The notes under the pieces were generated by a model. It did no database searches and was not told where the DNA came from. It saw only the letters and a list, made by a program, of their open reading frames with translations. From positions 1-33,235 of the IMG/VR virus record IMGVR_UViG_3300021399_000067: a stretch of DNA of 33,235 nucleotides; one strand, written 5' to 3'. Positions 12,900-33,235 of the stretch are shown here, in pieces; the first letter of the stretch is position 1, and each line of letters begins with the position of its first letter. The translations under genes and the position numbers were made by a program. This DNA is from a virus.

Positions 12900-13463
12900 T
12901 TATGGGACGGTTACGAAATAATTGCCGCCGTAATATCCATATGCCGTGCCGTAATTGTAACCGCTATTGTTGAAGTACAGGACGTGCGGCGCATCCCCTG
13001 CCTGCCATTCCTCGTATGCCTCAATCACGGCCGCATCTGATATGTTTGTTCTATCGGCCACCACGGATCCATTGGATACAACCTCAAATTGCCCCGATTG
13101 ATTGCAAACGCCTGTGATTGTGTCCGGGAACGAATCGGATTCGTATGCCCTGTTGATAATAACCTCCGCAATCAATATCCTGCCTTGGTATGAATCCGCA
13201 TCGGATCCCCTGTCCGATTCTGCCTCCACCACGGAGGAAATCAAGATAAATTCTTCGGTTGTCATGCCGATGGATGCCGCCTTTGCCTCAATTGGTGCCT
13301 CGTATCGTTCTAATTCTGATAATCCGTTCCACCATACGAGGAACGCCACCAACGGGATTGTAATTGCCTTAATCATCATCGTTAGGGGATTCCTGCGGTT
13401 CCTGCGTATCGGGTACATAATGGGGACACGCATTTTTCGCGCAATCTTTGCATTCAAATTCAC
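12900..13463 (-). CDS. Membrane-anchored SleB-like cell wall hydrolase (Hydrolase_2 family)
   Basis: Basic N-terminus plus TM segment (IKAITIPLVAFLVWW). Catalytic-domain pattern ...EAESDRG...LIAEVIINRAYESDSFPDTITGVCNQSGQFEVV.... The GTG start is uncertain; internal ATGs are possible. Confidence 0.7.
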   Translation of the reverse strand: MNLNAKIARKMRVPIMYPIRRNRRNPLTMMIKAITIPLVAFLVWWNGLSELERYEAPIEAKAASIGMTTEEFILISSVVEAESDRGSDADSYQGRILIAEVIINRAYESDSFPDTITGVCNQSGQFEVVSNGSVVADRTNISDAAVIEAYEEWQAGDAPHVLYFNNSGYNYGTAYGYYGGNYFVTVP

Positions 13464-13974: not shown

Positions 13975-14125
13975 TTTTCAAAAAGTAAAACAAATAATTC
14001 CTTTTCCAAACGGTTACGATATTGTGTCCATCGGTCCCGTGTTTCCTGCGATGGTGTGCCTCGGATGATAACGGATGCCCTTTCGATTTCTTCCCGGTAT
14101 TCTGTTTCCGTTTGGAATCTGAGGT

Positions 14126-14458
14126 TTATTCCCCGAAAATACATGATGTCTTGTCGCAATCGTCTTTATAAGGGCATACCGTGCAACCGGGAATTGATAC
14201 ATGTTCCGAAGATGGCAACGCCGTGTTGGATCCATACAGATGCTTGGCCTTGCCTGCGGCCATTATCAATTCCGCAGGCTTGGGAAACCATTTATTTGTT
14301 GCCATGTGGGACCGTGCCGCCTTGTATATGGATTCTGCCTCGTATTCGGCAAATATCATTTGCCACATGCTCAACATTTCCGCAGGATCCTCGATTCGTG
14401 TGTTGGGATACGCCGCCACCAATGCTTTTATCAACGAAATTGTTTCCGCCCGTGTCAC
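14126..14458 (-). CDS. G39P-like helicase loader (tentative)
   Basis: 110 aa directly after the replisome organiser. The pattern ...LIKALVAAYPN...W...F...KWFPKPAELI resembles the loader-and-inhibitor-of-G40P family. Confidence 0.5.
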   Translation of the reverse strand: MTRAETISLIKALVAAYPNTRIEDPAEMLSMWQMIFAEYEAESIYKAARSHMATNKWFPKPAELIMAAGKAKHLYGSNTALPSSEHVSIPGCTVCPYKDDCDKTSCIFGE

Positions 14459-15243
14459 GCCTTTTTTGCCTCCTTTGCCAATTCTTCGGCTAACATATCA
14501 TCCAATATGTCCATTGTGGATTTCTTCGGCACCTGTGGCGGAATCTTGCCACCTCGGAATCCAACATCATGCACCGGGAATATGCCACGATATGAATTCA
14601 TAATGGATTGATTGATGCATTCCATCATCTGCGCAGGATCCCCATTGCCGTTCTTGAATGCATCGTTGATGGCCAATTTCAAACCGCGTTCGGTTGTGAT
14701 GGGATGTTTCGTGTTTTTCCTCATTTCGAAGAAATCAATAAACGCCTGCCTCAAATCGGGATTGTTCTTGATAATCTCCACGGAATCCAAAACGGAATCA
14801 ACATCCAATTTCGCCTTGGTCCCCTTATTAGATAAACCATTATTTGGTTTTATATTTGGTTTTATATATGGTATTGGTTCCGCATTTTCCACAAATCCAT
14901 TTTTATTTTCTGCCAAATCCATTTCGGAATTTTCGGAAATGCAACCAACCGATTTTACATCGGCATACCATTTCGTGCGGTCATATGACGAATTGTTATA
15001 ATTCCCTGTTTTTATATACCCGGATTCCTCCAATTTCTTAAGGGCATATGTTATTTGGTCCTTGGTCAAATACGGGAATTGGTCACAAAATGCCTTGATA
15101 CTGTTGTATGTCCAATATTCCCCATCGTGAAAATGAACATCGTTCGTGCGGTTTTTCTCGCACCAAAATTGGATGTTCTTATACAGAATAGCCGCAATAA
15201 CGCCAACATCCTGCGCAACCTCGGTGTCAAATGAATTAATCAT
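14455..15243 (-). CDS. Replication initiator / replisome organiser (wHTH N-domain, DnaD-like C-domain)
   Basis: 262 aa. N-terminus ...AAILYKNIQFWCEKN...EYWTYNSIKAFCDQFPYLTKDQITYALKKLEESGYI...DRTKWYA is typical of Firmicutes phage/plasmid initiators. Confidence 0.65.
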   Translation of the reverse strand: MINSFDTEVAQDVGVIAAILYKNIQFWCEKNRTNDVHFHDGEYWTYNSIKAFCDQFPYLTKDQITYALKKLEESGYIKTGNYNNSSYDRTKWYADVKSVGCISENSEMDLAENKNGFVENAEPIPYIKPNIKPNNGLSNKGTKAKLDVDSVLDSVEIIKNNPDLRQAFIDFFEMRKNTKHPITTERGLKLAINDAFKNGNGDPAQMMECINQSIMNSYRGIFPVHDVGFRGGKIPPQVPKKSTMDILDDMLAEELAKEAKKA

Positions 15244-15262
15244 GTGTCGGGATCCTCCTTGA

Positions 15263-15300
15263 AGAAATTAAAACCCCGGGATGTGGCACGTTCCCGGGGT
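15263..15300 (-). terminator. Intrinsic terminator ACCCCGGGA-10 nt-TCCCGGGGT followed by TTTTAATTT
   Basis: 9-bp GC-rich stem at 15273-15281/15292-15300 plus a U tract, only about 20 nt upstream of the organiser RBS. Confidence 0.65.
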
Positions 15301-15382
15301 TGCGGTTGTTAACGATGGATTGTTGATGTGCCACCGTCAACAACCAAAATAAAGGCATACAATGTAAAAGCATTGTAATACG

Positions 15383-15411
15383 ATTATATGCCCACCCTGC
15401 GGAAAATTCAA
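15383..15411 (-). promoter_or_regulatory. Near-consensus promoter TTGAAT-17-TATAAT followed by the conserved box CGTATTACA
   Basis: -35 at 15406-15411 and -10 at 15383-15388, immediately after the stop of the upstream gene. Confidence 0.6.
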
Positions 15412-15414
15412 CAA

Positions 15415-16092
15415 TTAATCAAATGTGAACGGCAATTCCAATTCATCCTGTGCCTCGGGAATCGGCATCGGCTCGGGGATGGGTTCGGGCATCGGTTCGA
15501 GTTCCTGCGCCTTTTCCATTGCGGCCTTTTTGGCGGCAACGCAGGATTTGCAAACGTACTTGCCCCATCTGTCGTGTGATTTCTTCGCCCACGTGGCATC
15601 CGTGAACAACTTGTGGCAATTAGCGCATTCATACTTAATATGTGCCTTGGGTTCCGCCTTGGCCGCCTGTGGCGCATTCTGTTGCATGATGGCGGATGCC
15701 ATTTCGTCTGCGGATGCTATGGATTCAACGATGCCGAATCCTGCCATACCCAACGCCCTGCCAACGGCCGATGTTTCGCAATTCTCGATGTATGATGTGC
15801 GATTGATGACGGACGAATCTTCGCTTTCGTATGATGTCCCCGTTCCGAGAATCCGCAGGGATCCATCCTCCATGTAATATCCCACCTTGGCAACCATTAC
15901 GATGATGCCGTCCACGTGGGACACAATGTCCGTCATAATGAACCCATCCGGGAACACGGAACGGAACGCATTAACGCGTTCGTTAACGGATGCGTATTCC
16001 TTGCTAATCTCTTTCCCCAATTTCTTATCCCATCGGGTAATCGTCATGGTCTTTATATTCTTGTTTGCCTTTTTCAATTCTTCGTATGTCAT
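15415..16092 (-). CDS. Single-strand annealing protein (Sak/Rad52-like or ERF-like) with C-terminal Zn ribbon and acidic tail
   Basis: 225 aa after the Gp157-like gene. Motif IENCETSAVGRALGMAGFG; CANC...CKSC; acidic end DELELPFTFD reminiscent of SSB-type tails. Confidence 0.55.
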   Translation of the reverse strand: MTYEELKKANKNIKTMTITRWDKKLGKEISKEYASVNERVNAFRSVFPDGFIMTDIVSHVDGIIVMVAKVGYYMEDGSLRILGTGTSYESEDSSVINRTSYIENCETSAVGRALGMAGFGIVESIASADEMASAIMQQNAPQAAKAEPKAHIKYECANCHKLFTDATWAKKSHDRWGKYVCKSCVAAKKAAMEKAQELEPMPEPIPEPMPIPEAQDELELPFTFD

Positions 16093-16107
16093 TGTATGCC
16101 TCCTTGT

Positions 16108-16611
16108 TTATTTAATCTGTATGTTCTTCTTTTCTTCGATGTATGCGCCATCAACGATTTCGCCGCCATCGATTGCCTCTTTGATTGCCTTTTTGTCCGG
16201 GGCAAATGTTACCTTTTCCGTCACGAAACGGGGATCCAACAAATCCACGTTGGGGACCACAACCGAACGCGAAGAACGGAACGACAACTTGACACGATTT
16301 GACTTGAATTCCGTTTCGCCTGCGCCCTGCATGGATGTGGCCAAATAATCCTTAAGTCTTTCCGCCTTGTTGGCCGCAATCGTTGCCCTGTCCGCCAATT
16401 TCTTGGATTCCGCCTTAAGGGCATCCGCCTCCGCAACGCATTCCTTGTAATACAATGCGATGTTCTCAATCTTCGTGTTCCTTTCTGCGTTCAACGCCTC
16501 GATGCGCTCGAAATCACCATCCGCAATGCATCCGTCCTCATCCATGGACGAATAAAGCGCATCCAACGCCTCGCGAATCTGTGAATCGATGTCAAACAAT
16601 GAAAATCCCAT
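16108..16611 (-). CDS. Siphovirus Gp157-like protein
   Basis: Trimmed to the ATG at 16611 (GGAGGTGATGAATTT upstream). Coiled-coil N-terminus and conserved C-terminal half (...VTFAPDKKAIKEAI...). Confidence 0.65.
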   Translation of the reverse strand: MGFSLFDIDSQIREALDALYSSMDEDGCIADGDFERIEALNAERNTKIENIALYYKECVAEADALKAESKKLADRATIAANKAERLKDYLATSMQGAGETEFKSNRVKLSFRSSRSVVVPNVDLLDPRFVTEKVTFAPDKKAIKEAIDGGEIVDGAYIEEKKNIQIK

Positions 16612-16665
16612 AAATTCATCACCTCCGTGTATATATTTGGCGGCATGGGTACCCGCCACGCATAT

Positions 16666-16694
16666 ATGATACACCACATTGTAAATATATGCAA
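16666..16694 (-). promoter_or_regulatory. Promoter TTGCAT-17-TATCAT for the recombination genes
   Basis: -35 at 16689-16694 and -10 at 16666-16671, just downstream of the terminator at 16704-16736. Confidence 0.45.
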
Positions 16695-16703
16695 TACGAG
16701 AAA

Positions 16704-16736
16704 TCAAAAACCGCAGGAACCGAAATCCCTGCGGTT
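16704..16736 (-). terminator. Intrinsic terminator AACCGCAGG-10 nt-CCTGCGGTT followed by TTTTT
   Basis: 9-bp stem at 16709-16717/16728-16736 followed by a T5 run on the minus strand. Confidence 0.7.
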
Positions 16737-16774
16737 AATGAGTGAAAACCACGGTGGTGATGTGATGTAACACG

Positions 16775-16803
16775 ATTATATATCAACCGCGCAATTTGTT
16801 CAA
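16775..16803 (-). promoter_or_regulatory. Near-consensus promoter TTGAAC-17-TATAAT followed by the conserved box CGTGTTACA
   Basis: -35 at 16798-16803 (inside the end of CDS 16783..17085) and -10 at 16775-16780. The terminator lies only about 40-70 nt downstream. Confidence 0.6.
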
Positions 16804-17085
16804 CGCGGCATCGTATAACCGGGGTTGAAAAGCACGGACCGTTTCCATCACCTCATCAATCACGGGCCATACTTTGGATGCATCTTTGCCGTGAACCATC
16901 TGCAAGAATTCCGAATTCCCATTAACATTAATCACTACTTCCCGGGATGATGCTTGCATCGGTTCGGATCCATACATGTGGTCGAGAAGAATATAAAAGG
17001 TTGCCAATTTCTCGCAATCTTGGTATGTTGCGCACGAATTCTCCAATTCGTCTATGGCATCCAATAATTGCGGTTTGGTCAACAT
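16783..17085 (-). CDS. Hypothetical protein (100 aa)
   Basis: ORF with RBS; last gene of the 19931->16783 cassette. Confidence 0.55.
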   Translation of the reverse strand: MLTKPQLLDAIDELENSCATYQDCEKLATFYILLDHMYGSEPMQASSREVVINVNGNSEFLQMVHGKDASKVWPVIDEVMETVRAFQPRLYDAALNKLRG

Positions 17086-17088
17086 GGA

Positions 17089-17538
17089 TTATTCCTCCAT
17101 GCGCCTAATGATTTTCTGCAATGCCCTGCGTTCATCCTCGGATGATACCTCGGACATCATGTCGCGCAGGATTTGCACCTTTTCTTCGTTGCCATCATCG
17201 TATGAATAACCATCGTTACGCGAATATCTACCACGGCCACCGCGTGCGGACGGATAACCGCCCTCGCGCGAATATCTGCCCATGGAATCCCTGCGTGCAT
17301 TGGATCCACGGCCGCGTGCGTTGGAATAACCGCGATTTGTCATGCCGTCCATGCCATCTGCGTTCGAATATTCGCCATCCTCGGAATATTCCTCGTACAT
17401 GATAATCTTGCATGAATTCTTGATGGAATTTAACAGTTTGTCGATTGTTTCCAAACTCCCGGCGGACAATTCGCCCTTGCGCACGATTTCGTCCAATTCC
17501 TTTTTGAGCATGTCTTTAACATCGTAATATGTGTGCAT
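17089..17538 (-). CDS. Hypothetical protein with helical ends and an Arg/Gly/Tyr/Ser-rich disordered core
   Basis: 149 aa; RBS AAAGGAGGAACCGAAGATG; low-complexity core ...RGYSNARGRGSNARRDSMGRYSREGGYPSARGGRGRYSRNDGYSY... Confidence 0.55.
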   Translation of the reverse strand: MHTYYDVKDMLKKELDEIVRKGELSAGSLETIDKLLNSIKNSCKIIMYEEYSEDGEYSNADGMDGMTNRGYSNARGRGSNARRDSMGRYSREGGYPSARGGRGRYSRNDGYSYDDGNEEKVQILRDMMSEVSSEDERRALQKIIRRMEE

Positions 17539-17556
17539 CTTCGGTTCCTCCTTTCC

Positions 17557-18015
17557 TTAAGCGATTCGCGTAATTACGAGATTTGCATTTTTCAAATTGA
17601 TGGATGCGGGCGGCGTTGTCGCAGGATCCTCAACCGTTGCATCGATATAACGGACCGATGCGGCAAAACAACACCCCTTGGGGATGGTCACGATGGCCGT
17701 GGCCGTTATATTGCCGTATTCGTCCACCGCCTGCGGCGTGAATATCGCCGTGGATGTAACCCGGGGTTCGCCATCAACGGCAATTGCCATTGCTATTGGC
17801 GCAACATCCTCGCCCTCCGGGATTGCGATATTTCCGTTAAAGGTCAATTGATACCTTGCGAAACAATTGTTGTTGCATGTCCTGCCACGCAAAATAAAAA
17901 TCCCTGTTTCATCCTCATGGTACACATTGCCATTGGGGCATGGGATAGAGGCCGTAAATAATGCCGGGGCATTCAACGCAATGGATTGAACGGCATTTGC
18001 CAAATATTCTGCCAT
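17557..18015 (-). CDS. Hypothetical beta-rich Cys-containing protein (152 aa)
   Basis: RBS AAGGAGGTGTAATCCATG. By eye the pattern is reminiscent of TNF/C1q-like jelly-roll spore-surface domains (BclA-C / ExsF type). This resemblance is low confidence. Confidence 0.5.
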   Translation of the reverse strand: MAEYLANAVQSIALNAPALFTASIPCPNGNVYHEDETGIFILRGRTCNNNCFARYQLTFNGNIAIPEGEDVAPIAMAIAVDGEPRVTSTAIFTPQAVDEYGNITATAIVTIPKGCCFAASVRYIDATVEDPATTPPASINLKNANLVITRIA

Positions 18016-18028
18016 GGATTACACCTCC

Positions 18029-18838
18029 TTATCCGTTACATCCGCAACCGCAACCATTGTTGCATGTGAAAATGTTTTGACGGCCATAAACGGGAACGGA
18101 CGGAATCGGACAATTAGAAAGACGATTATACAAAGCATCGATTTCTTGATTGAATCCGTTTTGTATAAACGCATTCTGTGCCGTCTGCGATGCGGCAAGG
18201 TTTGCCATGGTCAACTGTCTTTCAAGGTCCGCGATTTTTTCGTTTTTGGCATCGATTTTATCGTTACAGATTTGGTCAAGTATTTTTTGCGTGTTTGCCG
18301 TTTGGTTCACGAGAATATCACGGATACCATCGGACACGGCCGCCCTGTCTGCGCAGGCCTCGCGTGCAATATCCGCACCGAGGTTGGCAATGCCCAACCT
18401 ATTTTCGCAACAACAATCGGCAAACTGTTGTGATAATGCGAAATTCTGTTGCATGTTGGCCATCTGCCTGCCGTTGGCGGCAATTTCTGCCTGTGCAAAT
18501 CCATTCTGCACGGTTCCTTGCATGTCTGCGCAACAATTGCATAACTGTTGTGCAAGTGATGTCACGCCGTCACGAATCGATGTGATGTTGCCATTCAACA
18601 TTTGGTCACGGAATCCATCGGATGTAATCTCCGCTTGGTTCATCCACGGATATAATCCGCCTGCGCCTCCGTTACCGCCTCCGTTGTTGAATCCGTTGCC
18701 CCATCCGCCGTTGAAAAGGCAAAGGAACAAAAGGATAATCCACCATGAACCATCCCCGCCGAATCCGTCATTGTTTCTTGAACCGCCGACAACCGCGGCA
18801 AGGTCCGCCGCGCTCATTTCGCCTGTTGTTAGTGACAT
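18029..18838 (-). CDS. Cys-rich coiled-coil protein with a double-glycine-type leader and a Gly-rich hydrophobic segment
   Basis: 269 aa. N-terminus MSLTTGEMSAADLAAVVGG matches the LSxxELxxIxGG leader consensus at -12,-11,-8,-7,-4,-2,-1. Then GDGSWWIILLFLCLFNGGWGNGFNNGGGNGGAGG. 14 Cys in clusters (CNCC, DCCCE, CNNGCGCGCNG). Confidence 0.6.
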   Translation of the reverse strand: MSLTTGEMSAADLAAVVGGSRNNDGFGGDGSWWIILLFLCLFNGGWGNGFNNGGGNGGAGGLYPWMNQAEITSDGFRDQMLNGNITSIRDGVTSLAQQLCNCCADMQGTVQNGFAQAEIAANGRQMANMQQNFALSQQFADCCCENRLGIANLGADIAREACADRAAVSDGIRDILVNQTANTQKILDQICNDKIDAKNEKIADLERQLTMANLAASQTAQNAFIQNGFNQEIDALYNRLSNCPIPSVPVYGRQNIFTCNNGCGCGCNG

Positions 18839-18902
18839 TTGTTTTTTCTCCTTTCGTTGGATTTTGATTTATATTTCCTGTTGCAACAATTGGAAATCAT
18901 GG

Positions 18903-19112
18903 TTACCGCATGTTTTTCATTTGGTTGTATATTTGGTCCGCCTGTTGGGCGTATTGATTAATTTGCGCCTGCGAAATCCTGCCCGAATTAAGCATGTTTT
19001 GCACCACTTGTTTGGGATTCCCGGTGAATAACCTTTTGAATTCCATCAATGTTTGCATCATGTTGTTGCTCGGCATCTTCGGTCCCAATTGATTGAATAA
19101 TGGTGATGGCAT
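18903..19112 (-). CDS. Hypothetical Gln/Asn-rich helical protein (69 aa)
   Basis: Compact ORF tightly linked to its neighbours. Confidence 0.5.
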   Translation of the reverse strand: MPSPLFNQLGPKMPSNNMMQTLMEFKRLFTGNPKQVVQNMLNSGRISQAQINQYAQQADQIYNQMKNMR

Positions 19113-19115
19113 GGT

Positions 19116-19544
19116 TTATCCCTCCGCGTGTTCGGATCCATCAAGGATTCCGTTTATATCCTTTGTGATTTTTGCCTTGAATGCATCGAATTCCGAACGC
19201 GGCACATAATCGGGATTTGTCCCCGGTTTGTCCCCAACATGTCCCCGGTTTGTCCCCGATTGTTCGCGCTCCTTATAATCGAAGATACGCAGGGGCAACG
19301 GCATGCCGCTTTGGTCCATTGACTTGATGTAAAAAACGGATTCCTCCGAATCCATCAATAAAGCAGATTGTCCCGATGCCACGGGATGCGATTTCGCGGC
19401 CGCCTCGCCTTGAACCCATGTAATCCCATTGTTGGATGTGGTAACGCCGTTTTGGGGCATCTGTGCGCCCTGTGGCGGCATCTGCGGCGTTGGCACCATA
19501 TACATTGGATTGTAAAACTGTGGAATGTAATTGTTATATGCCAT
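19116..19544 (-). CDS. Hypothetical protein (142 aa; Pro/Gln-rich N-terminus, conserved-looking core WVQGEAAAKSHPVASGQSALLMDSEESVFYIKSMDQSGMP)
   Basis: ORF with RBS; contains an 18-bp perfect direct repeat at 19218-19235 and 19240-19257. Confidence 0.55.
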   Translation of the reverse strand: MAYNNYIPQFYNPMYMVPTPQMPPQGAQMPQNGVTTSNNGITWVQGEAAAKSHPVASGQSALLMDSEESVFYIKSMDQSGMPLPLRIFDYKEREQSGTNRGHVGDKPGTNPDYVPRSEFDAFKAKITKDINGILDGSEHAEG

Positions 19545-19550
19545 TTGGGT

Positions 19551-19931
19551 TTATTCCTCCTTTTCCCAAAAATACAAAAGAATCTCCGAACCCGAATCCC
19601 ACGAATCAAAATAGGATCCGTTCTCGATGCAACATACATGCCCTTGCGATGCAACGACATATGTTCCTTTTGGATGGTCCTTGGCGAAATCTGCGATGGT
19701 GATGCATGCCGGGCAAATGGATGGAACCATCTTTTGTTCAAATCCGTGTTTCCGCAGGAACATGCCCCACACATAATTGGCGGACGGCATGTCATGGTAA
19801 AATAACCCCTCGGCGCACAACCCAACGTATGCATCTTCCCAATCTTTGTTCAATGCCTTGGCAATCGCACGAACGGCGCAATCGCCCACCCTTTGATTGT
19901 TTGGATTCGGATTATAACGAACGTATGCCAT
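19551..19931 (-). CDS. Putative papain-fold Cys-His hydrolase (126 aa)
   Basis: Trimmed to the ATG at 19931 (AAGGAGGGCAGGAACC upstream). Candidate catalytic NQRVGDCAVRAI and QGHVCCIENGSYFDSWDSG motifs. Confidence 0.5.
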   Translation of the reverse strand: MAYVRYNPNPNNQRVGDCAVRAIAKALNKDWEDAYVGLCAEGLFYHDMPSANYVWGMFLRKHGFEQKMVPSICPACITIADFAKDHPKGTYVVASQGHVCCIENGSYFDSWDSGSEILLYFWEKEE

Positions 19932-19999
19932 GGTTCCTGCCCTCCTTGCCTTAATTGTGGCAAATGGGCAATCGATATTGAATGAATCGGAAATGCGTG

Positions 20000-20021
20000 T
20001 TTTACGCAATTTTTACGCAAT
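20000..20021 (-). repeat. Perfect tandem 11-mer ATTGCGTAAAA x2 (minus-strand reading)
   Basis: ttttacgcaat twice on the plus strand, between a terminator and the first cassette gene. Confidence 0.8.
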
Positions 20022-20052
20022 AAAACAGGGGCCGCATGCTCGCGGTCCCTGT
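20021..20052 (-). terminator. Intrinsic terminator ACAGGGACCGC-GAGCAT-GCGGCCCCTGT followed by TTTTA
   Basis: GC-rich hairpin at 20025-20052 (one A/C mismatch) plus a T tract, directly after the sigma-like gene. Confidence 0.6.
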
Positions 20053-20076
20053 CTTACAAAAAGGAGAAGAAAATAA

Positions 20077-20298
20077 TTATGGAATGTGTTTGAAGATGAT
20101 ATCTTCGCACCTTAAAACAATGTTTTGAATCTGCCTCGGGGATAAATCGAACTCATCCGCCAAATCTTCAATTAGGATCCTGTCCAACAATCTGCGTTTG
20201 ATGATGGCGCGATTCCTTTTATTGTGAATATATGAATCAATCGCACTCACAATTTGTTCGGCGGATATATCATCCCAATTATAACGAATCTTCGGCAT
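20077..20298 (-). CDS. Sigma-70 region-4-like HTH transcriptional regulator (73 aa)
   Basis: ...RNRAIIKRRLLDRILIEDLADEFDLSPRQIQNIV... resembles region 4 of sigma factors and phage late activators. Confidence 0.5.
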   Translation of the reverse strand: MPKIRYNWDDISAEQIVSAIDSYIHNKRNRAIIKRRLLDRILIEDLADEFDLSPRQIQNIVLRCEDIIFKHIP

Positions 20299-20779
20299 TT
20301 AACGCCTCTTTCGTCTGCCCCTGCGCCTCGTTACTCGTACTCGTGCCATTGTTTATGTCACCGTCCCCATTAAGATAATTGGCGATTCCCTCGCCCTCCG
20401 AATCTACATCAACGGAATAATCATCCACAATCTCGTATGTATTCCATTGGTAAATCCAATACATGTTGGACCCGACAAAAAGAATAACAAGGATGATGAT
20501 AACAATAATCAACCATCGGTTGTGCCTGTCCATCCGTGCCAATGCCGATTCAAACGCCATAAACGGCACCGCATCGTCCTTGTTTCCCATCGGATCCATC
20601 CTCCTATTTGTGATTATATCCGATGGTGGCTTGGATGGCAATGTGTCCGAGAATTCACCGCAGGATTCATGCTCCGGGAATTCAACATCACGATGGAACG
20701 GGCAATGGCCACGCATGTTCTTAATATCATCCTTGATAAAATGGATGCAATGTCCGCAAATGTCGTTTGTCTTATTCAT
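20279..20779 (-). CDS. Cys/His-rich N-terminal domain + single TM + acidic/Gly-rich C-terminal domain (anti-sigma-like topology)
   Basis: Trimmed to the ATG at 20779 (AAAAGGAGGCAAACAATG). CGHC...HCPFH...C, then TM WLIIVIIILVILFVGSNMYWIY. Overlaps the sigma-like gene by 20 nt. Confidence 0.5.
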   Translation of the reverse strand: MNKTNDICGHCIHFIKDDIKNMRGHCPFHRDVEFPEHESCGEFSDTLPSKPPSDIITNRRMDPMGNKDDAVPFMAFESALARMDRHNRWLIIVIIILVILFVGSNMYWIYQWNTYEIVDDYSVDVDSEGEGIANYLNGDGDINNGTSTSNEAQGQTKEALNAEDSL

Positions 20780-21146
20780 TGTTTGCCTCCTTTTCTGCAT
20801 CTAACATAACATATTCGTTATCAATCACCCTGCATTCAATCGTTAACCTTGTATCGCAGGAAATCCGTTGTGCCTCGAATCTGTCGTGCAATGTAACATA
20901 GACATCACAATATGTTGGTGTTGATGTCAACGATACCGTGTTAACAGAAATCGGCGCAATCACAATTTTGGGTCCTTTGTCTGTGTTAATCTTCAATCGG
21001 ATGTATGATTTTGCACCGCCCCTCTTGTTTTCACCCGTAAAATCAATGGCCATCATGTCGTAAACCTTGGATCCGCAATAAACGCATGTTCCTGCATCGT
21101 TTAGGATTCCGCCGCAATTGGGACAATTCTTCAATTGTTCAATCAT
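20772..21146 (-). CDS. Zinc-ribbon protein (124 aa)
   Basis: CPNCGG...CVYCGS N-terminus; RBS present. Confidence 0.5.
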   Translation of the reverse strand: MIEQLKNCPNCGGILNDAGTCVYCGSKVYDMMAIDFTGENKRGGAKSYIRLKINTDKGPKIVIAPISVNTVSLTSTPTYCDVYVTLHDRFEAQRISCDTRLTIECRVIDNEYVMLDAEKEANNE

Positions 21147-21396
21147 TCGTATTGCCCTCCTTTTCCGCCAAAAAGCACCATCCCTCGGGATCAGTCTTCA
21201 TATAACCATTGCCCCACTTGGTGCATGCCTCGTGTCCTGTGATTATCGGAACGCCCGGGCATGCCTCGGTAAAAACATCCTCCAAATAGTATTTGCAATG
21301 CTTGCACTTGATTAATTCCGTGGGGACCATCTCAATTGATGCCAATTTTGGTTTGTATTCGAACACCATACCATCGGGAATATCAATTCTTGCCAT
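21139..21396 (-). CDS. Small Cys-rich protein (85 aa)
   Basis: CKHCKYY...C...C; shares the conserved junction sequence at its start. Confidence 0.5.
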   Translation of the reverse strand: MARIDIPDGMVFEYKPKLASIEMVPTELIKCKHCKYYLEDVFTEACPGVPIITGHEACTKWGNGYMKTDPEGWCFLAEKEGNTND

Positions 21397-21595
21397 TGTC
21401 TGCCTCCTTTCTCATTGGTACTAAATATCCATCGGGTAAACAATCAAATAAATGTTGTAATGCATTATATGAATTAATCTGCATTGTTACCAATGGATTT
21501 TGATTGCATGTTTTCAATTCGCGTATAGCATCATTAATCGATGCTTGTATTTCATCCCGCAACCTTGGCGTTAATGGTTTATATATCGTTGCCAT
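21383..21595 (-). CDS. Hypothetical protein (70 aa)
   Basis: Trimmed to the ATG at 21595, preceded by AAAAGGAGGCAGACA. Confidence 0.5.
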   Translation of the reverse strand: MATIYKPLTPRLRDEIQASINDAIRELKTCNQNPLVTMQINSYNALQHLFDCLPDGYLVPMRKEADNGKN

Positions 21596-21770
21596 TGTCT
21601 GCCTCCTTTTCTGCACCATAGTATTTTTCCAAATCCGCCTCAACCCAACAATCGGGGCAAATAACGGGTTCATTCAATGCGATGCCCACGAAATTAAAAA
21701 GGGCATTCCCGGGAATGTGGCAATCCTCGGTTGCAAATAGGTTTTTGCAACCATAACACATCCTAATCAA
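21579..21770 (-). CDS. Small zinc-ribbon protein (63 aa, TTG start)
   Basis: TTG at 21770 has the same spacing from GGAGGCAGACA as the ATGs of neighbouring genes; CYGC...CPDC. Confidence 0.45.
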   Translation of the reverse strand: MIRMCYGCKNLFATEDCHIPGNALFNFVGIALNEPVICPDCWVEADLEKYYGAEKEADNGNDI

Positions 21771-21915
21771 TGTCTGCCTCCTTTTCGGGATCCAATACAT
21801 CCCGTGCGCCTTTTATTATTGTTTCTGCCATCTGCAATTCGCTTGCCAAATAATAGCATGCCGATGCAAGAATCATATTTAACACCATGGAACCGATAAA
21901 AAATATATAAATCAT
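21766..21915 (-). CDS. Possible 49-aa membrane peptide (MIYIFFIGSMVLNMILASACYYLASELQ...)
   Basis: ATGA overlap with the upstream stop; RBS AAGGAGGGCAATGC; not in the ORF track. Confidence 0.35.
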
Positions 21916-22298
21916 GCATTGCCCTCCTTTAACAAATCATCAAATGTTATTTGTTCCGATTCTTCAACATCGGTCAAACACCGGGGATTTTTCCATAATA
22001 TGCGATAACCGCAATTCCAACAAAAGTTATCCACGATGTCCTTTAATGTGGATCCGCAATGCCCGCAGGAATAATAATCATGTTTGCGGCCATATACACC
22101 TTTGTGGAATTTCGGTTTTGCCCCAACATATGCATCAACGACATATTGCCTTTGTGGTTCCGAGATTGCCGATGGTGCCAAATCAATTAATCCGCAATAT
22201 GCGCCTTTTTGATATTTGCACCTATCACATTCACAAATACACCGCGCCTTGAATTCCTCGCGCAATCCGTTGGCATCAATCAAGCGAATTATACTCAT
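21912..22298 (-). CDS. Double zinc-ribbon protein (128 aa)
   Basis: Trimmed to the ATG at 22298; CICECDRC...C and CGHCG...CWNCG motifs. Confidence 0.5.
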   Translation of the reverse strand: MSIIRLIDANGLREEFKARCICECDRCKYQKGAYCGLIDLAPSAISEPQRQYVVDAYVGAKPKFHKGVYGRKHDYYSCGHCGSTLKDIVDNFCWNCGYRILWKNPRCLTDVEESEQITFDDLLKEGNA

Positions 22299-23273: not shown

Positions 23274-24182
23274 TTACTTAATAAATGAGGCAAACACGAA
23301 TCCCGTGCCATCTGCCAATTCGTACCAATCGCCCTGTTTCTCGCCCTTGATGGCAACCATGGAACCCTTGGGCAATAGACGAACAACCGGGGCATTAAGT
23401 GATGCCGTCTTGCGCACACGCAGGGGATCCCGATTCGTGGCAACGGTTCCCGTCCACACGGATGTGTTTTCCTCGGGCCTGTGGATTTTCTGCCCAACGC
23501 GGATTAAATCGGGATTGAGGATGCCGTTGTCCTTTGCAATCACGGAAACGGACACGCCCCACATCTTGGCAATCTTGGTCAACGTATCGCCTGCCTTTAC
23601 GATGTAAAAATCATCCTCCGCAGGATCCGAAGATGCCGAAGATTCCGCAGGATCCGCAGGAACGGAGGCGGATTCGTACTCAATCCCGGGAATCTTGAAC
23701 CATTCTTCCCACGCCGTATCCTTGATGCCATCCTCAATTACACCGTAATTAAAACCCTTGGCCTGCACAACCTTGCCATCGCCGATGTAAACGCCAACGT
23801 GGTTGTTCTTCCACAATCCCAATCCGGGGATTTCGGGGATGGATCCGATGGGGCCTTTTTCGGTTGCCCGGGAATGCATCACGTTTGCGGACATGTCGAA
23901 ATCCTTATTATATATCGGAGGCATCGGCATGCCGTCAACATCGGGTTCCTTGGTCATTAGATAATCCTTGATTAATCCGCCGCAATCCATTACACGTTTG
24001 CCGTAATCGCCGCGTTCCTTGGCCTGCGCGATGCGCTTGCCCGAGAATTGGGATGGATACCTCTTGGCGCAGGATTCAAGCAATTTGGGGTTGCCAATCT
24101 GCCCATACGTTCCGAACCAATACACCTGCCCCACCATCTTTTTTACGAATTTTACCAACCCGGTGTTAGTTTTCTTAGACAT
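23274..24182 (-). CDS. Endolysin: NlpC/P60-type peptidase + LysM + SH3 domains
   Basis: 302 aa. Catalytic-type motifs VMDCGGLIKDY and NNHVGVYIGDGKVV. LysM: YIVKAGDTLTKIAKMWGVSVSVIAKDNGILNPDLIRVGQKI. SH3-like C-terminus. Confidence 0.85.
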   Translation of the reverse strand: MSKKTNTGLVKFVKKMVGQVYWFGTYGQIGNPKLLESCAKRYPSQFSGKRIAQAKERGDYGKRVMDCGGLIKDYLMTKEPDVDGMPMPPIYNKDFDMSANVMHSRATEKGPIGSIPEIPGLGLWKNNHVGVYIGDGKVVQAKGFNYGVIEDGIKDTAWEEWFKIPGIEYESASVPADPAESSASSDPAEDDFYIVKAGDTLTKIAKMWGVSVSVIAKDNGILNPDLIRVGQKIHRPEENTSVWTGTVATNRDPLRVRKTASLNAPVVRLLPKGSMVAIKGEKQGDWYELADGTGFVFASFIK

Positions 24183-31204: not shown

Positions 31205-33235
31205 TTATCCTCTACCTCCGCCAATAAAATCATTCCTTTGGTTTGATTGTACCACGAATTCATCGATTTGTTCTCCGCCGATGTAAACAGGAACGACAAC
31301 GGTTTGATTTGTTGCTTGGCTTATCGCCTGCAACAATTGATTGTATCCCATTATCAATTCGCCGCCGTATGAATCACCGCCGCCCAATGCGCGGCCGTCA
31401 CCATAACCAAAAATTGTGGGGTCATTTAACAAGATGGGTTGATTATATGCCTTTTTGTACCATTCCACGCCAACGGACGGTAACGAACCTTGCCCACCGA
31501 ATCCCCATGGTGCCTCGCCTCCACTAACGGAAAAGTGCGGCAATTTGATTTCGGGCAATTCCCAATCGAAATCGAAGAATCCCAACAATTCATCGATTGC
31601 CCCGGACACAATGGATTTGGCATCCTCAAATATGCCTGTGAATTTCTCCCATACATCGTCACCGAATCCCTCGATTTTGCCGATTATATCGGAAAATCCT
31701 GTGGTGAAATTCTCCCATGCATCGGAAAAGAATGTAACTATGGATTCTATAACATCCGCGCCAATCTCGCCTGCCTTGGTTAATACATCGGATCCAAATG
31801 TGGTAACTTTATCCCACCATTGCGCAAGGCCGTCAATAACCTCAACCAATCCGTCACCGAACATGTCGTACAACCAATTTCCTAAATCTTCGCCCAAATC
31901 TGCGATGAAATTGCCGATTTGAACCGCGATGTCGGGTAACGATTCCGCCAATGCAACTATGATATTAGAAATAAGGATAATTGCCGCGCCCACCAATTCC
32001 GGGGCATGCTCGAGCAACGCCGTTGATATCGTCAATATGATTTCAACGGCCACGTTGATAAACGATTCGATGTTGTCCGGGGTCAAAAAATCATCAACCA
32101 AAATGTGGATAACATCAATAACCGTGTCCAAAAGTAAATCCGCATTATCTGCAAGGCCGTTGGCCAATCCCATGAGCAATTCGCCGCCCGCCTCGATGAG
32201 CATTGGCGTGACGGATATAATCGCAGGGATTAACGTGCTTAGAATCTGCGGCAAGGCCGCCGAAATCGCGCTAATTATAGATGGCAACGCCTGCACCAAT
32301 GCCGTGACAATCGAAATGGATGCCGACAATAACGGAGGCAATACCGTGTCGATGATGGTTGGTAATTGGTCCACGATTATTGGCGCAACCTCTTGAATCA
32401 ATGTCGCGATTCCGCCCAACGCCTGCGTAACAACCGGGGCCAAATTGCCAACAACTGTTTCGGCGGATGAAACAACATTGTCAATCAAGGATCCCAAATC
32501 GGCGTTTTCGTCTGCCATGCCTGTTACAAGATTTGTCCACGATGCGGACAACATCCCGATGGATCCGCTAATGGTTGTGGATGCCTCGTTGCTTGTCGTG
32601 CCTGCGATGTTCATTTCCTCTTGCACGGCGTGGATGGCCTCAATCATTTGGTCGAATGAAACATCATCAAGGGATGTTATTTGTTCCTCCAAAATGCCCG
32701 AATCGTTTATCAATCGGAGCATTTCCTCGCCTGTGCCGCCATAACCTAATTTGAGATTATCCAACATGGTGTAATTGCCCTTGGCAAATCCCATGTATGC
32801 GTTTTGTATCGCCTCCATGTCCGTGCCGTATGTGTTGGCATTGTCTGCCATGTCGGCAATGGCCATGTTGGCAATATCTGCGGCCGCATCCGTATCGCCA
32901 CCCAATCCCTGCAACAACGATGCCGAAAAGCCTGTTACTGTTTCCATGTATTGGTTAGCGGACATTCCCGCGGTTTCGAACGCCTGTGATGCATATTCCA
33001 TCACGGTATCGGAGGAATCGCCGAATAACTTTTCAACGCCGCCCGATAATTGTTCAAAATCCGCATATGCCTTGACGGATTCGGTCGTTAATGTGGCAAC
33101 GCCTGTGGCGGCGGCACCTATGGCGGCACCTGCGGCCGCGCCTGCAATACCCAATCCCTTGGCAATCGTTCCGCCAATGGATCCTGCCCGGGATTCGGCA
33201 TCGCTTAAACCCTCATCGTACTTTGAAGAATCAAG
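31205..33235 (-). CDS. Tape measure protein, main body; open to the window end and continues at 1..156 (687 aa in total on the circle)
   Basis: Long Ala/Gly/Ile-rich helical ORF after the chaperone pair. The frame stays open upstream of the ORF-track start at 33154. The joined length of 2064 nt is a multiple of 3. Confidence 0.85.
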   Translation of the reverse strand, partial: LDSSKYDEGLSDAESRAGSIGGTIAKGLGIAGAAAGAAIGAAATGVATLTTESVKAYADFEQLSGGVEKLFGDSSDTVMEYASQAFETAGMSANQYMETVTGFSASLLQGLGGDTDAAADIANMAIADMADNANTYGTDMEAIQNAYMGFAKGNYTMLDNLKLGYGGTGEEMLRLINDSGILEEQITSLDDVSFDQMIEAIHAVQEEMNIAGTTSNEASTTISGSIGMLSASWTNLVTGMADENADLGSLIDNVVSSAETVVGNLAPVVTQALGGIATLIQEVAPIIVDQLPTIIDTVLPPLLSASISIVTALVQALPSIISAISAALPQILSTLIPAIISVTPMLIEAGGELLMGLANGLADNADLLLDTVIDVIHILVDDFLTPDNIESFINVAVEIILTISTALLEHAPELVGAAIILISNIIVALAESLPDIAVQIGNFIADLGEDLGNWLYDMFGDGLVEVIDGLAQWWDKVTTFGSDVLTKAGEIGADVIESIVTFFSDAWENFTTGFSDIIGKIEGFGDDVWEKFTGIFEDAKSIVSGAIDELLGFFDFDWELPEIKLPHFSVSGGEAPWGFGGQGSLPSVGVEWYKKAYNQPILLNDPTIFGYGDGRALGGGDSYGGELIMGYNQLLQAISQATNQTVVVPVYIGGEQIDEFVVQSNQRNDFIGGGRG
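33113..33235. repeat. Second copy of the 123-bp terminal repeat (identical to 1-123)
   Basis: Direct comparison. Confidence 0.95.

Follow-up and report, generated by a model that had tools for sequence, protein, structure and literature searches.

A conserved seven-gene cassette that behaves as a mobile unit in Clostridia siphophages and may encode a cytoplasmic protein assembly

We describe a block of seven consecutive genes, p1 to p7, in the viral sequence IMGVR_UViG_3300021399_000067; the whole stretch analysed, 33,235 nt long, is called the window below. The cassette lies on the minus strand between the small regulator gene reg73 and the gene Gam/Gp157. All seven genes are functional protein-coding genes under purifying selection, they recur in nearly constant order in phages and prophages of Clostridia, and the block behaves, as judged from sequence comparison, as a mobile, self-contained unit. 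Our proposal, which we advance tentatively, as one possibility, is that Clostridia siphophages exchange the cassette horizontally as a self-contained accessory operon and that its products would form a multi-protein structural assembly in the cytoplasm.

The seven open reading frames (ORFs) were found where an earlier reading, made from the letters alone (the sequence-only reading), had placed them, at 16783–19931. The relative L090, which was found through P0122 and has the same layout as the window, served as the reference for the ratios of nonsynonymous to synonymous substitution (dN/dS). The proteins p1–p7 share 73–93% amino-acid identity with their counterparts in L090 at dS of about 0.7–1.0, and the dN/dS values of 0.05–0.25 indicate that the seven ORFs are real protein-coding genes (Table 1). 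The start of p1 is most likely the ATG at 19931, 3′ of the ribosome-binding site (RBS) AAGGAGG, and homologues begin at the same position. A 293-aa ORF on the plus strand (18150–19031) runs antisense to p4; composition most likely accounts for it, without any coding role, and we disregarded it because the minus frame of p4 is under strong purifying selection. The GC content of the cassette (0.47–0.49) is like that of the surrounding DNA, and paralogues of its proteins were not detectable among the other window proteins.

A tblastn search of deposited phages with p4 and p5 returned one cultured carrier, Butyrivibrio virus Ceridwen, whose host is Butyrivibrio fibrisolvens DSM 3071, together with about 20 gut phages, none of them cultured, of human, lemur and mouse origin. 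The gene order in Ceridwen is endolysin, a transmembrane (TM) protein similar to p173 of the window, a reg73 homologue, a terminator, p1-p2-p3-p4-p5, a 264-aa insert, p6 and p7. When each GTDB species was represented by one genome and scanned with the p5 alignment, 142 relatives came up and we retained 80 loci; the carriers are mostly metagenome-assembled genomes from rumen and gut that are labelled Lachnospiraceae, Ruminococcus, Oscillospiraceae/Acutalibacteraceae or simply Clostridia, along with a few isolates. Searches of IMG/VR and JGI metagenomes added one further cassette locus only. To count each gene (Table 1), we searched every ORF of 89 loci iteratively with profiles. About 85 loci of Clostridia phages or prophages show the order p1-p2-p3-p4-p5-p6(-p7); the commonest patterns are p1-p6, p1-p7 and reg73/p173-p1-p7, the minimal core is p2-p4-p5, and p7 is the last and least constant member. 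The sequence-only reading had treated the seven genes as one set, and their neighbourhoods bear this out, since the genes co-occur in nearly constant order and a lack of co-occurrence was not seen.

The families are large. At 90% identity p4 and p5 each have 8000 clusters or more, nearly all of them from metagenomes of gut and rumen; for p1 we found 1292 homologue clusters. At 50% identity p4 forms 1286 clusters, 614 of them at E ≤ 1e-10 and all about 200–330 aa long, with no fusions to other domains among the 1286.

The cassette occupies at least three genomic contexts. It lies between lysis genes and early genes in the window, L090 and Ceridwen; between a minor head protein and the scaffold and major capsid protein genes in Dulem virus 35, L077 and L007, and probably also in the prophage group L071/L073/L076; and adjacent to an integrase gene in Dulem virus 33 and L087. 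Together with the fixed gene order and a hairpin/promoter-like element described below, these contexts suggest a mobile, self-contained unit. In its terminators, its promoter-like element and its variable sites, which include a lysis–integrase junction and the variable region of a head module, the cassette resembles phage morons, but it is far larger and more conserved than these, with seven genes in a fixed order, under strong purifying selection, that are kept in an apparently integrase-less phage. Additional genes occur inside the block in single loci: an HNH endonuclease, encoded on the other strand, between p3 and p4 in Dulem virus 33 (L003 5043–5594), a DNA methyltransferase between p4 and p5 in a Lachnospiraceae prophage (L071 6825–7940), and the 264-aa ORF between p5 and p6 in Ceridwen (L001 9184–9978).

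Transcription signals were present on both sides of the cassette, in line with the sequence-only reading. Upstream, a hairpin at 20052–20025 with a T-run is followed by two copies of TTGCGTAAAA. The terminator-like hairpin ACAGGGACCGCGAGCATGCGGCCCCTGT was read from the sequence, its central part was also found by a scan, and it would close the reg73 transcription unit. The repeat TTGCGTAAAA, which has only these two copies in the whole window, may serve the cassette as promoter or operator; it sits where other cassette loci carry a hairpin, a T-run and (A/G)TGCGA(A/T)AAT. Conservation of the cassette leader in L090 is partial. Many loci have a terminator-like hairpin and T-run with (A/G)TGCGA(A/T)AAT immediately behind them and then, after 10–20 nt, the RBS of p1 or p2. 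The strict pattern of hairpin, T-run and TGCGA(A/T)AA had 22 plus-strand matches in 1.1 Mb, and 14 of them lie no more than about 230 nt upstream of p1 or p2. We infer that the hairpin–TGCGAAAAT element of cassette loci is a putative promoter of the extended −10 housekeeping type that travels with the cassette. In many loci p1 is immediately preceded by a further ORF of about 45 aa (for example L003, L024, L028, L056 and L063, and also L066, L074, L083 and L001) with the pattern xxRLIxAGxxPxxAxxxxxWYxxQG...L..Y; the window is without it.

The promoter/terminator pair claimed for the downstream side is likewise there, at 16803–16775 (TTGAAC-17-TATAAT) and 16736–16709. The promoter, which is sigma-70-like and on the minus strand, overlaps the stop codon of p7; about 40 nt beyond it come the strong terminator, a second promoter-like region and then Gam. 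This promoter-then-terminator arrangement (16709–16803) could be a leader/attenuator or a small RNA that controls the early recombination genes.

None of the seven proteins could be assigned to a known family of defined role, as the sequence-only reading had stated. The members p1–p7 had no meaningful match in Pfam, NCBIfam or PADLOC, and PADLOC gave no relevant match at E ≤ 1 for p1–p7, reg73 or p173; its sole match, of p3 to JetA3/JetA (E 0.011, 12.4 bits), was judged to be due to chance. PHROG families, all of unknown function, include p1–p5 (Table 1), whereas p6 and p7 belong to none. Sequence profile searches of the PDB with p1, p2, p4, p5, p6 and p7 gave only chance or coiled-coil matches, and none of the cassette proteins is significantly similar to a structural family of the PHROGs. 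We could not assign the cassette a standard role in replication, structure or lysis, and found no confident homology to housekeeping functions. In the literature that we searched, including the Ceridwen genome paper (PMC7372960), we found no description of the module. We rate the seven-gene set as outside the known kinds of system, none of which accommodates it; this rating reflects ignorance of its function and not the demonstration of a new mechanism.

In p1, which had been called papain-like, Cys18, His98 and Asp109 are invariant in 57 homologues. The AlphaFold2 (AF2) model has a predicted local distance difference test score (pLDDT) of 92.9; helix 18–26 begins at Cys18, and His98 and Asp109 lie on the sheet formed by strands 90–124. 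On this model we are confident that p1 has a minimal papain-like fold and is a putative thiol enzyme, so that the call is supported at the level of the fold. Foldseek matches in the PDB were non-significant (E 0.26–0.5), with the C39 domain of PCAT1, Josephin-2 and ataxin-3 at the top at a template-modelling score on the query (TMq) of up to 0.49, and TssM and the foot-and-mouth disease virus protease Lpro also near the top; for the PCAT1 C39 domain the values were E 0.26–0.44 and TMq 0.34–0.46. In BFVD the model strongly matched small uncharacterised proteins of many unrelated phages (of Pseudomonas, Enterococcus, Cellulophaga, Sinorhizobium, Nodularia and others), and one match was labelled as a C39 domain (E 8e-3). 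Pfam gave no match for p1, to C39 or any other family, at E ≤ 1. These matches between modelled structures place p1 in a wide family of minimal papain-like phage proteins.

For p5 the sequence-only reading had offered, by eye, a resemblance to TNF/C1q-like spore-surface domains, and this holds at the level of the fold. The AF2 model, built with 38 homologues, is all-beta (pLDDT 70, predicted template-modelling score (pTM) 0.68), and Foldseek places at the top of its PDB matches BxpB of B. anthracis (8d02), ExsFA of B. cereus (7r1m) and the C-terminal domain of F-BclA (9h38), followed by ExsF with an F-Anchor peptide, 4-1BBL, EDA and C1q. These matches have probability 1.00, E between 4e-6 and 2e-4 and TM-scores of 0.5–0.66 (8d02, 7r1m, 9h38, 6cu0, 1rj7 and 1pk6); cyanophage tail and tail-fibre domains come lower, at ranks 31 and 37. 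From the model, p5 is predicted to be a ten-strand jelly-roll of the TNF/C1q type. Searches at the sequence level (Pfam, NCBIfam and PDB profiles) did not place it in the TNF/C1q superfamily. The protein has conserved Cys residues, including an invariant GCC.

The architecture of p4 is more complex. Its N-terminus in the window, MSAADLAAVVGG, is a short conserved peptide, followed by a G/N-rich linker, about 12 hydrophobic residues (GDGSWWIILLFLCLF, with the core WWIILLFLCLF) and a second Gly-rich stretch; the C-terminal part is a Q/N-rich helix of about 170 residues with an invariant CCC, other conserved Cys residues, P-x-P and an end of the GCGC type. Across the family the N-terminal peptide has two or three interchangeable versions. 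Class A, to which the window p4 belongs, has the form [ML][ST]xAD[IL]AAV[TV]G[NG] and also occurs in loci without p1 within 8 kb; class B, which comprises most members, has the form [MF]xMPVxP[MA][YG]G, with the variant TMLV[GQ]P[TS], including LVGPT. The double-glycine leader claimed for p4 did not survive this comparison: the GG is not conserved, close relatives having VVGN and most of the family TGN or MPVxP. The wider idea of a secretion-type leader is not supported either, as a scan of the window proteins, which covered part of the small ORFs, revealed no ABC transporter and the motif occurs in loci without p1. Nor did the claimed membrane segment hold up, the hydrophobic residues numbering only about 12 with a hydropathy value (KD15) of 1.72, against 3.51 for the TM helix of p173; a membrane anchor in p4 is therefore uncertain. 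A p4 homologue of 197 aa is encoded near the left end of Vibrio phage 12VC501 (L004 4607–5200), a member of the Schitoviridae with a Gram-negative host, and has the Gly-rich N-terminus, the hydrophobic stretch, the CCC motif and the coiled coil.

The composition that the sequence-only reading had described for the smaller proteins was also found. The N-terminus of p2 is Pro/Gln-rich (P/Q/Y-rich by composition) and is followed by a conserved small domain, WVQGE..GAKSY..LxDSE..xYxKS.D.SGMP, a YVTRxE helix and a charged tail; its best PDB sequence match (E 0.0036 over 34 residues) was judged to be a chance match of helices. The Q/N-rich helical protein p3 has 29% Q/N. In p6, N-terminal helices and a C-terminal helix flank the R/G/Y/S-rich core, which is conserved as NSYARGRG.NARRDSMGRYS...GYSRDD, and p7 is helical; neither has a family or PDB match. 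Low complexity with conserved flanking helices thus dominates p2 (P/Q/Y), p3 (Q/N), p4 (G/N and Cys) and p6 (R/G/Y/S). A hydrophobic N-terminal stretch typical of a signal peptide was found in none of the seven proteins, and hydropathy profiles of p1, p2, p3, p5, p6 and p7 show no stretch comparable to a signal peptide or TM segment. From their sequences these six look cytoplasmic, so that an envelope-directed or toxin role finds little support.

On this basis, we suggest that the cassette products co-assemble in the cytoplasm of the infected cell into a coat, fibre or matrix and would represent neither an enzyme pathway nor a secreted toxin nor a defence system. The fixed gene order, purifying selection, the lack of an enzymatic signature except in p1, the low-complexity and Cys-rich sequences, the trimer-type jelly-roll and the lack of export signals are what argue for co-assembly. 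The cassette takes up about 10% of a 33-kb genome in which no integrase was recognised among the proteins scanned, which argues for a role in the lytic cycle or in a particle. In the proposed assembly p5 would form a trimeric platform and p4 a helical subunit that can be cross-linked through Cys; the N-terminal peptide of p4 (MPVxPxY or S-x-A-D-I-A-A-V-T-G-N) may dock onto a partner in the manner of exosporium leader or hook peptides; p2, p3, p6 and p7 would be co-assembling matrix or chaperone components, and p1 might process or cross-link one of the components. The destination of the assembly could be the virion, an intracellular body, or the host spore or cell. ExsF uses its trimer interfaces to bind F-Anchor by the exosporium leader at the N-terminus of the latter, and an N-terminal M-P-psi-psi-x-P-psi hook serves for the docking of F-ENA subunits (PMC12357932); by analogy, the MPVxP and LVGPT peptides of p4 look like such hooks.

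A number of points weigh against co-assembly. Neither experiments nor sequence comparison link the cassette to any characterised assembly, and a function in modifying the host would be just as compatible with the housekeeping-type promoter and the moron-like placement. The similarity of p5 is of fold only, from a model with pLDDT 70 and TM-scores of about 0.6, and TNF-like jelly rolls serve many purposes; the columns of p5 covary with the class of the p4 N-terminal motif no more than those of p1, p3 and p6 do. The fold of p1 is common in phages without the cassette, and 26 of the 89 loci are without p1, whose tie to the other genes may be a loose one. The cassette tolerates selfish genes within it (the HNH endonuclease, the DNA methyltransferase and the 264-aa ORF), and the p4 homologue of the N4-like Vibrio phage 12VC501 occurs without p5 or other cassette genes.

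The sequence-only reading had favoured an envelope-directed or condensate-forming module for host takeover, exclusion or toxicity. With p4 and p173 in the membrane and the other products regulating or assisting, a module acting at the envelope would fit the flanking of the p4 hydrophobic stretch by Gly-rich segments and the p173-like TM proteins that travel with the cassette. It would also suit the moron-like position with its own promoter-like element, terminators and, in places, an adjoining integrase, and the location of the 12VC501 homologue in the left-end region of its genome. We nevertheless consider it unlikely, for the hydrophobic stretch of p4 is short and weak, the other six proteins have nothing comparable, PADLOC gave no relevant match to a known defence or exclusion family, and host-takeover genes are usually small and fast-evolving and do not keep a fixed seven-gene order across hundreds of divergent phages. 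Export of a bacteriocin-like p4 has hardly any probability left and is largely refuted. There p4 would be a double-glycine-leader precursor cut by p1 as a stand-alone C39 peptidase; the window p4 N-terminus does end in GG and fits the leader consensus LSxxELxxIxGG, and p1 has a Cys-His-Asp set, PCAT1 C39 among its top weak fold matches and the BFVD match labelled C39. The unconserved GG, even in close relatives, the lack of an ABC exporter among the scanned proteins, the leader-like class in loci without p1, the lack of a Pfam C39 match, the non-significant PDB fold matches, and the length of p4 (269 aa, with conserved helical domains) all speak against this system, and we rejected it from family conservation and co-occurrence.

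Two further explanations name a destination for the cassette products. In the first, a sub-case of co-assembly to which we give a rather low probability, the products build an accessory virion structure, with p5 as knob or decoration, p4 as coiled-coil shaft and p1, p6 and p7 as maturation factors or chaperones. The trimer-type jelly-roll of p5 recalls phage tail-fibre knobs and capsid decoration trimers, cyanophage tail and tail-fibre domains are among its fold matches, and in one subgroup the cassette sits inside the head gene cluster, between minor head protein and scaffold or major capsid protein; the fixed order, the lack of export signals and retention in an integrase-less 33-kb phage agree with this. 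Unlike those knobs and trimers, p5 is a stand-alone protein of about 150 aa encoded in a mobile unit of variable location, outside the tail module of the window and with its own terminator and promoter. No cassette protein is significantly similar to PHROG structural families or to other structural proteins of the window, and the hydrophobic and low-complexity content is atypical for fibres.

The other destination is the spore. That the cassette encodes spore-surface proteins which remodel the spores of sporulating Clostridia, p5 acting like BxpB/ExsFA, p4 as a Cys-rich basal or nap protein and p1 as cross-linker or processor, seems to us improbable. Coat and exosporium proteins are typically rich in Cys, Gln, Gly and Tyr and lack signal peptides. 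The best structural matches of p5 are BxpB, ExsFA and the C-terminal domain of BclA, the phage itself encodes a Hydrolase_2 protein of the SleB/CwlJ type, Lachnospiraceae or Oscillospiraceae make up many of the carriers, and the LVGPT variant of p4 resembles the exosporium leader (PMC12357932). Against this, the upstream element resembles a housekeeping extended −10 promoter and not one of sigma-K, -E, -G or -F, and no sequence-level relation to coat or exosporium families was found. Moreover, Butyrivibrio fibrisolvens, the sole cultured host, and many of the Ruminococcus hosts are not known to sporulate.

A broader form of the same analogy, not tied to spores alone, would make the cassette a virus-borne counterpart of the exosporium nap machinery, in which a p5 trimer captures the p4 hook and the low-complexity partners, with p1 as maturation enzyme, produce a cross-linked coat or fibre layer on virions, or on phage-carrying host spores or cells. 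We regard this as speculative, with a low probability like that of the virion structure. Bacillus exosporium anchoring, in which a BxpB/ExsFA trimer holds the leader of BclA or F-Anchor, is like the cassette in the solved structures best matched by the p5 model, in the adjacent p4 with its short Pro/hydrophobic-rich N-terminal peptide and leader-like LVGPT variant, and in components that lack signal peptides and are Cys-rich or of low complexity. It is unlike the cassette in that there is no sequence homology, p4 has no collagen repeats, the genes are phage-borne behind a housekeeping-type promoter-like element, the hosts include non-sporulating genera, and p4 and p5 give no covariation signal.

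As for the genomic setting, the window approximates one circularly permuted siphovirus genome with all genes on the minus strand. Contigs of 33,163–33,190 bp in NCBI, ENA and Logan encode proteins identical to those of the cassette, so that the window corresponds to about a whole genome that recurs in metagenomes. A megablast search with positions 14000–22000 against 50,697 phage records gave no match, and in IMG/VR and JGI metagenomes Gam, used to look for close relatives with or without the cassette, led only to distant relatives (≤44% identity) and the replication initiator to none. The features around the cassette are listed in Table 1. After Gam/Gp157 come a single-strand annealing protein, the replication initiator, a G39P-like loader, a SleB-type hydrolase and DUF1064, and, last in reading order, terminase, portal, head-morphogenesis protein, scaffold, major capsid protein and major tail protein. 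The SleB/CwlJ-type cell-wall hydrolase (Pfam Hydrolase_2, E 6e-15; 12900–13463, minus strand) lies among the early genes and is additional to the endolysin; the same arrangement is found in Ceridwen and L091.

Table 1. Cassette genes, flanking signals and neighbouring genes in the window, with PHROG family, dN/dS against L090 and number of the 89 loci that carry the gene.
Feature	Position	Strand	Description	PHROG family (E)	dN/dS	Loci (of 89)
tape measure	31205–33154	minus	first in minus-strand reading order; then distal tail protein and further tail genes			
endolysin	23274–24182	minus	NlpC/P60-LysM-SH3; about ten small genes between it and p173			
p173	20279–20800	minus	Zn-ribbon/TM protein, 173 aa; upstream of reg73			18 (p173-like)
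reg73	20077–20298	minus	sigma-region-4-like helix-turn-helix (HTH), 73 aa; directly before cassette			24
terminator-like hairpin	20019–20052	minus	ACAGGGACCGCGAGCATGCGGCCCCTGT + TTTTATT			
direct repeat	20000–20020	minus	TTGCGTAAAA twice, at 20020–20011 and 20009–20000, directly 3′ of hairpin			
cassette p1–p7	19931–16783	minus	between reg73 and Gam/Gp157			
p1	19551–19931	minus	126 aa from ATG with RBS AAGGAGG	phrog_3754 (2e-31)	0.08	63
p2	19116–19544	minus	142 aa	phrog_21718 (1e-24)	0.25	79
p3	18903–19112	minus	69 aa	phrog_22984 (1e-13)	0.05	61
p4	18029–18838	minus	269 aa, 14 Cys	phrog_16490 (7e-41)	0.10	83
p5	17557–18015	minus	152 aa	phrog_20016 (1.5e-29)	0.09	86
p6	17089–17538	minus	149 aa, R+G+Y+S = 40%		0.09	67
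p7	16783–17085	minus	100 aa		0.18	30
intrinsic-terminator-like hairpin	16709–16736	minus	12-bp stem, 6 GC pairs, T-run; ends cassette unit, in front of Gam			
Gam/Gp157	16108–16611	minus	likely true start ATG 16611			

Two of the upstream neighbours recur with the cassette. The protein p173 has a Cys/His-rich N-terminal region and one strong TM helix (residues 97–111), and library scans gave no family match for it. Homologues of its TM-containing C-terminal half are encoded directly upstream of, or within, the cassette in the loci counted in Table 1; in one subgroup a p173-like gene lies between p1 and p2. For reg73 only weak, sub-threshold matches were obtained (sigma-32/ECF region 4, the CD3324 family and HTH_23). 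Its homologues stand directly upstream of p1 in the loci where it was counted, Ceridwen included, and it is the usual upstream neighbour of the cassette. Together, p173 and reg73 may be a dedicated membrane sensor/regulator pair for the cassette.

The window also carries a pronounced GGATCC signature. The hexamer occurs 69 times against 6.5 expected (10.6-fold over-representation); GATC as a whole is rarer than expected (71 sites against 125), and 69 of those sites lie inside GGATCC. Within the cassette it is found, for example, at 16966, 17302, 17624, 19134 and 19614; the sites occur in each of the three codon phases and also between genes, have no wider consensus in their flanks, and are distributed more regularly than chance would give (coefficient of variation 0.65). 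Close relatives share the signature (31 of 35 GATC are GGATCC in L090 and 30 of 32 in L091), and more distant cassette-bearing phages are without it; no DNA methyltransferase was found among the window proteins scanned. The sequence-only reading had noted that the longest GGATCC-free stretch lies in the cassette and had seen in it a hint of separate evolutionary origin. The first part is correct, the gap of 1510 bp between 17624 and 19134 being the largest, but it is not an unusual one. In simulations with 69 random sites the largest gap was 2321 ± 544 bp, and P (simulated ≥ observed) was 0.98. A gap smaller than the random expectation says nothing on separate origin; with simulated gaps mostly larger, and a GC content like that of the surroundings, we rejected it as a sign of foreign DNA.

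Taken together, our results describe a module that has no Pfam family or name despite very large families in gut and rumen metagenomes. A block of seven genes that is kept in fixed order under purifying selection and fills about 10% of the genome must matter to phages of the dominant gut Clostridia. The cultured carrier Ceridwen, growing on B. fibrisolvens DSM 3071, makes its function directly testable. If the exosporium-like reading were wrong, the module would still be among the larger coherent unexplained gene blocks of gut phages; if it were true, the cassette would encode a new kind of phage-built structure, present in very many Clostridia phage sequences and protecting or dispersing the phage in the gut.

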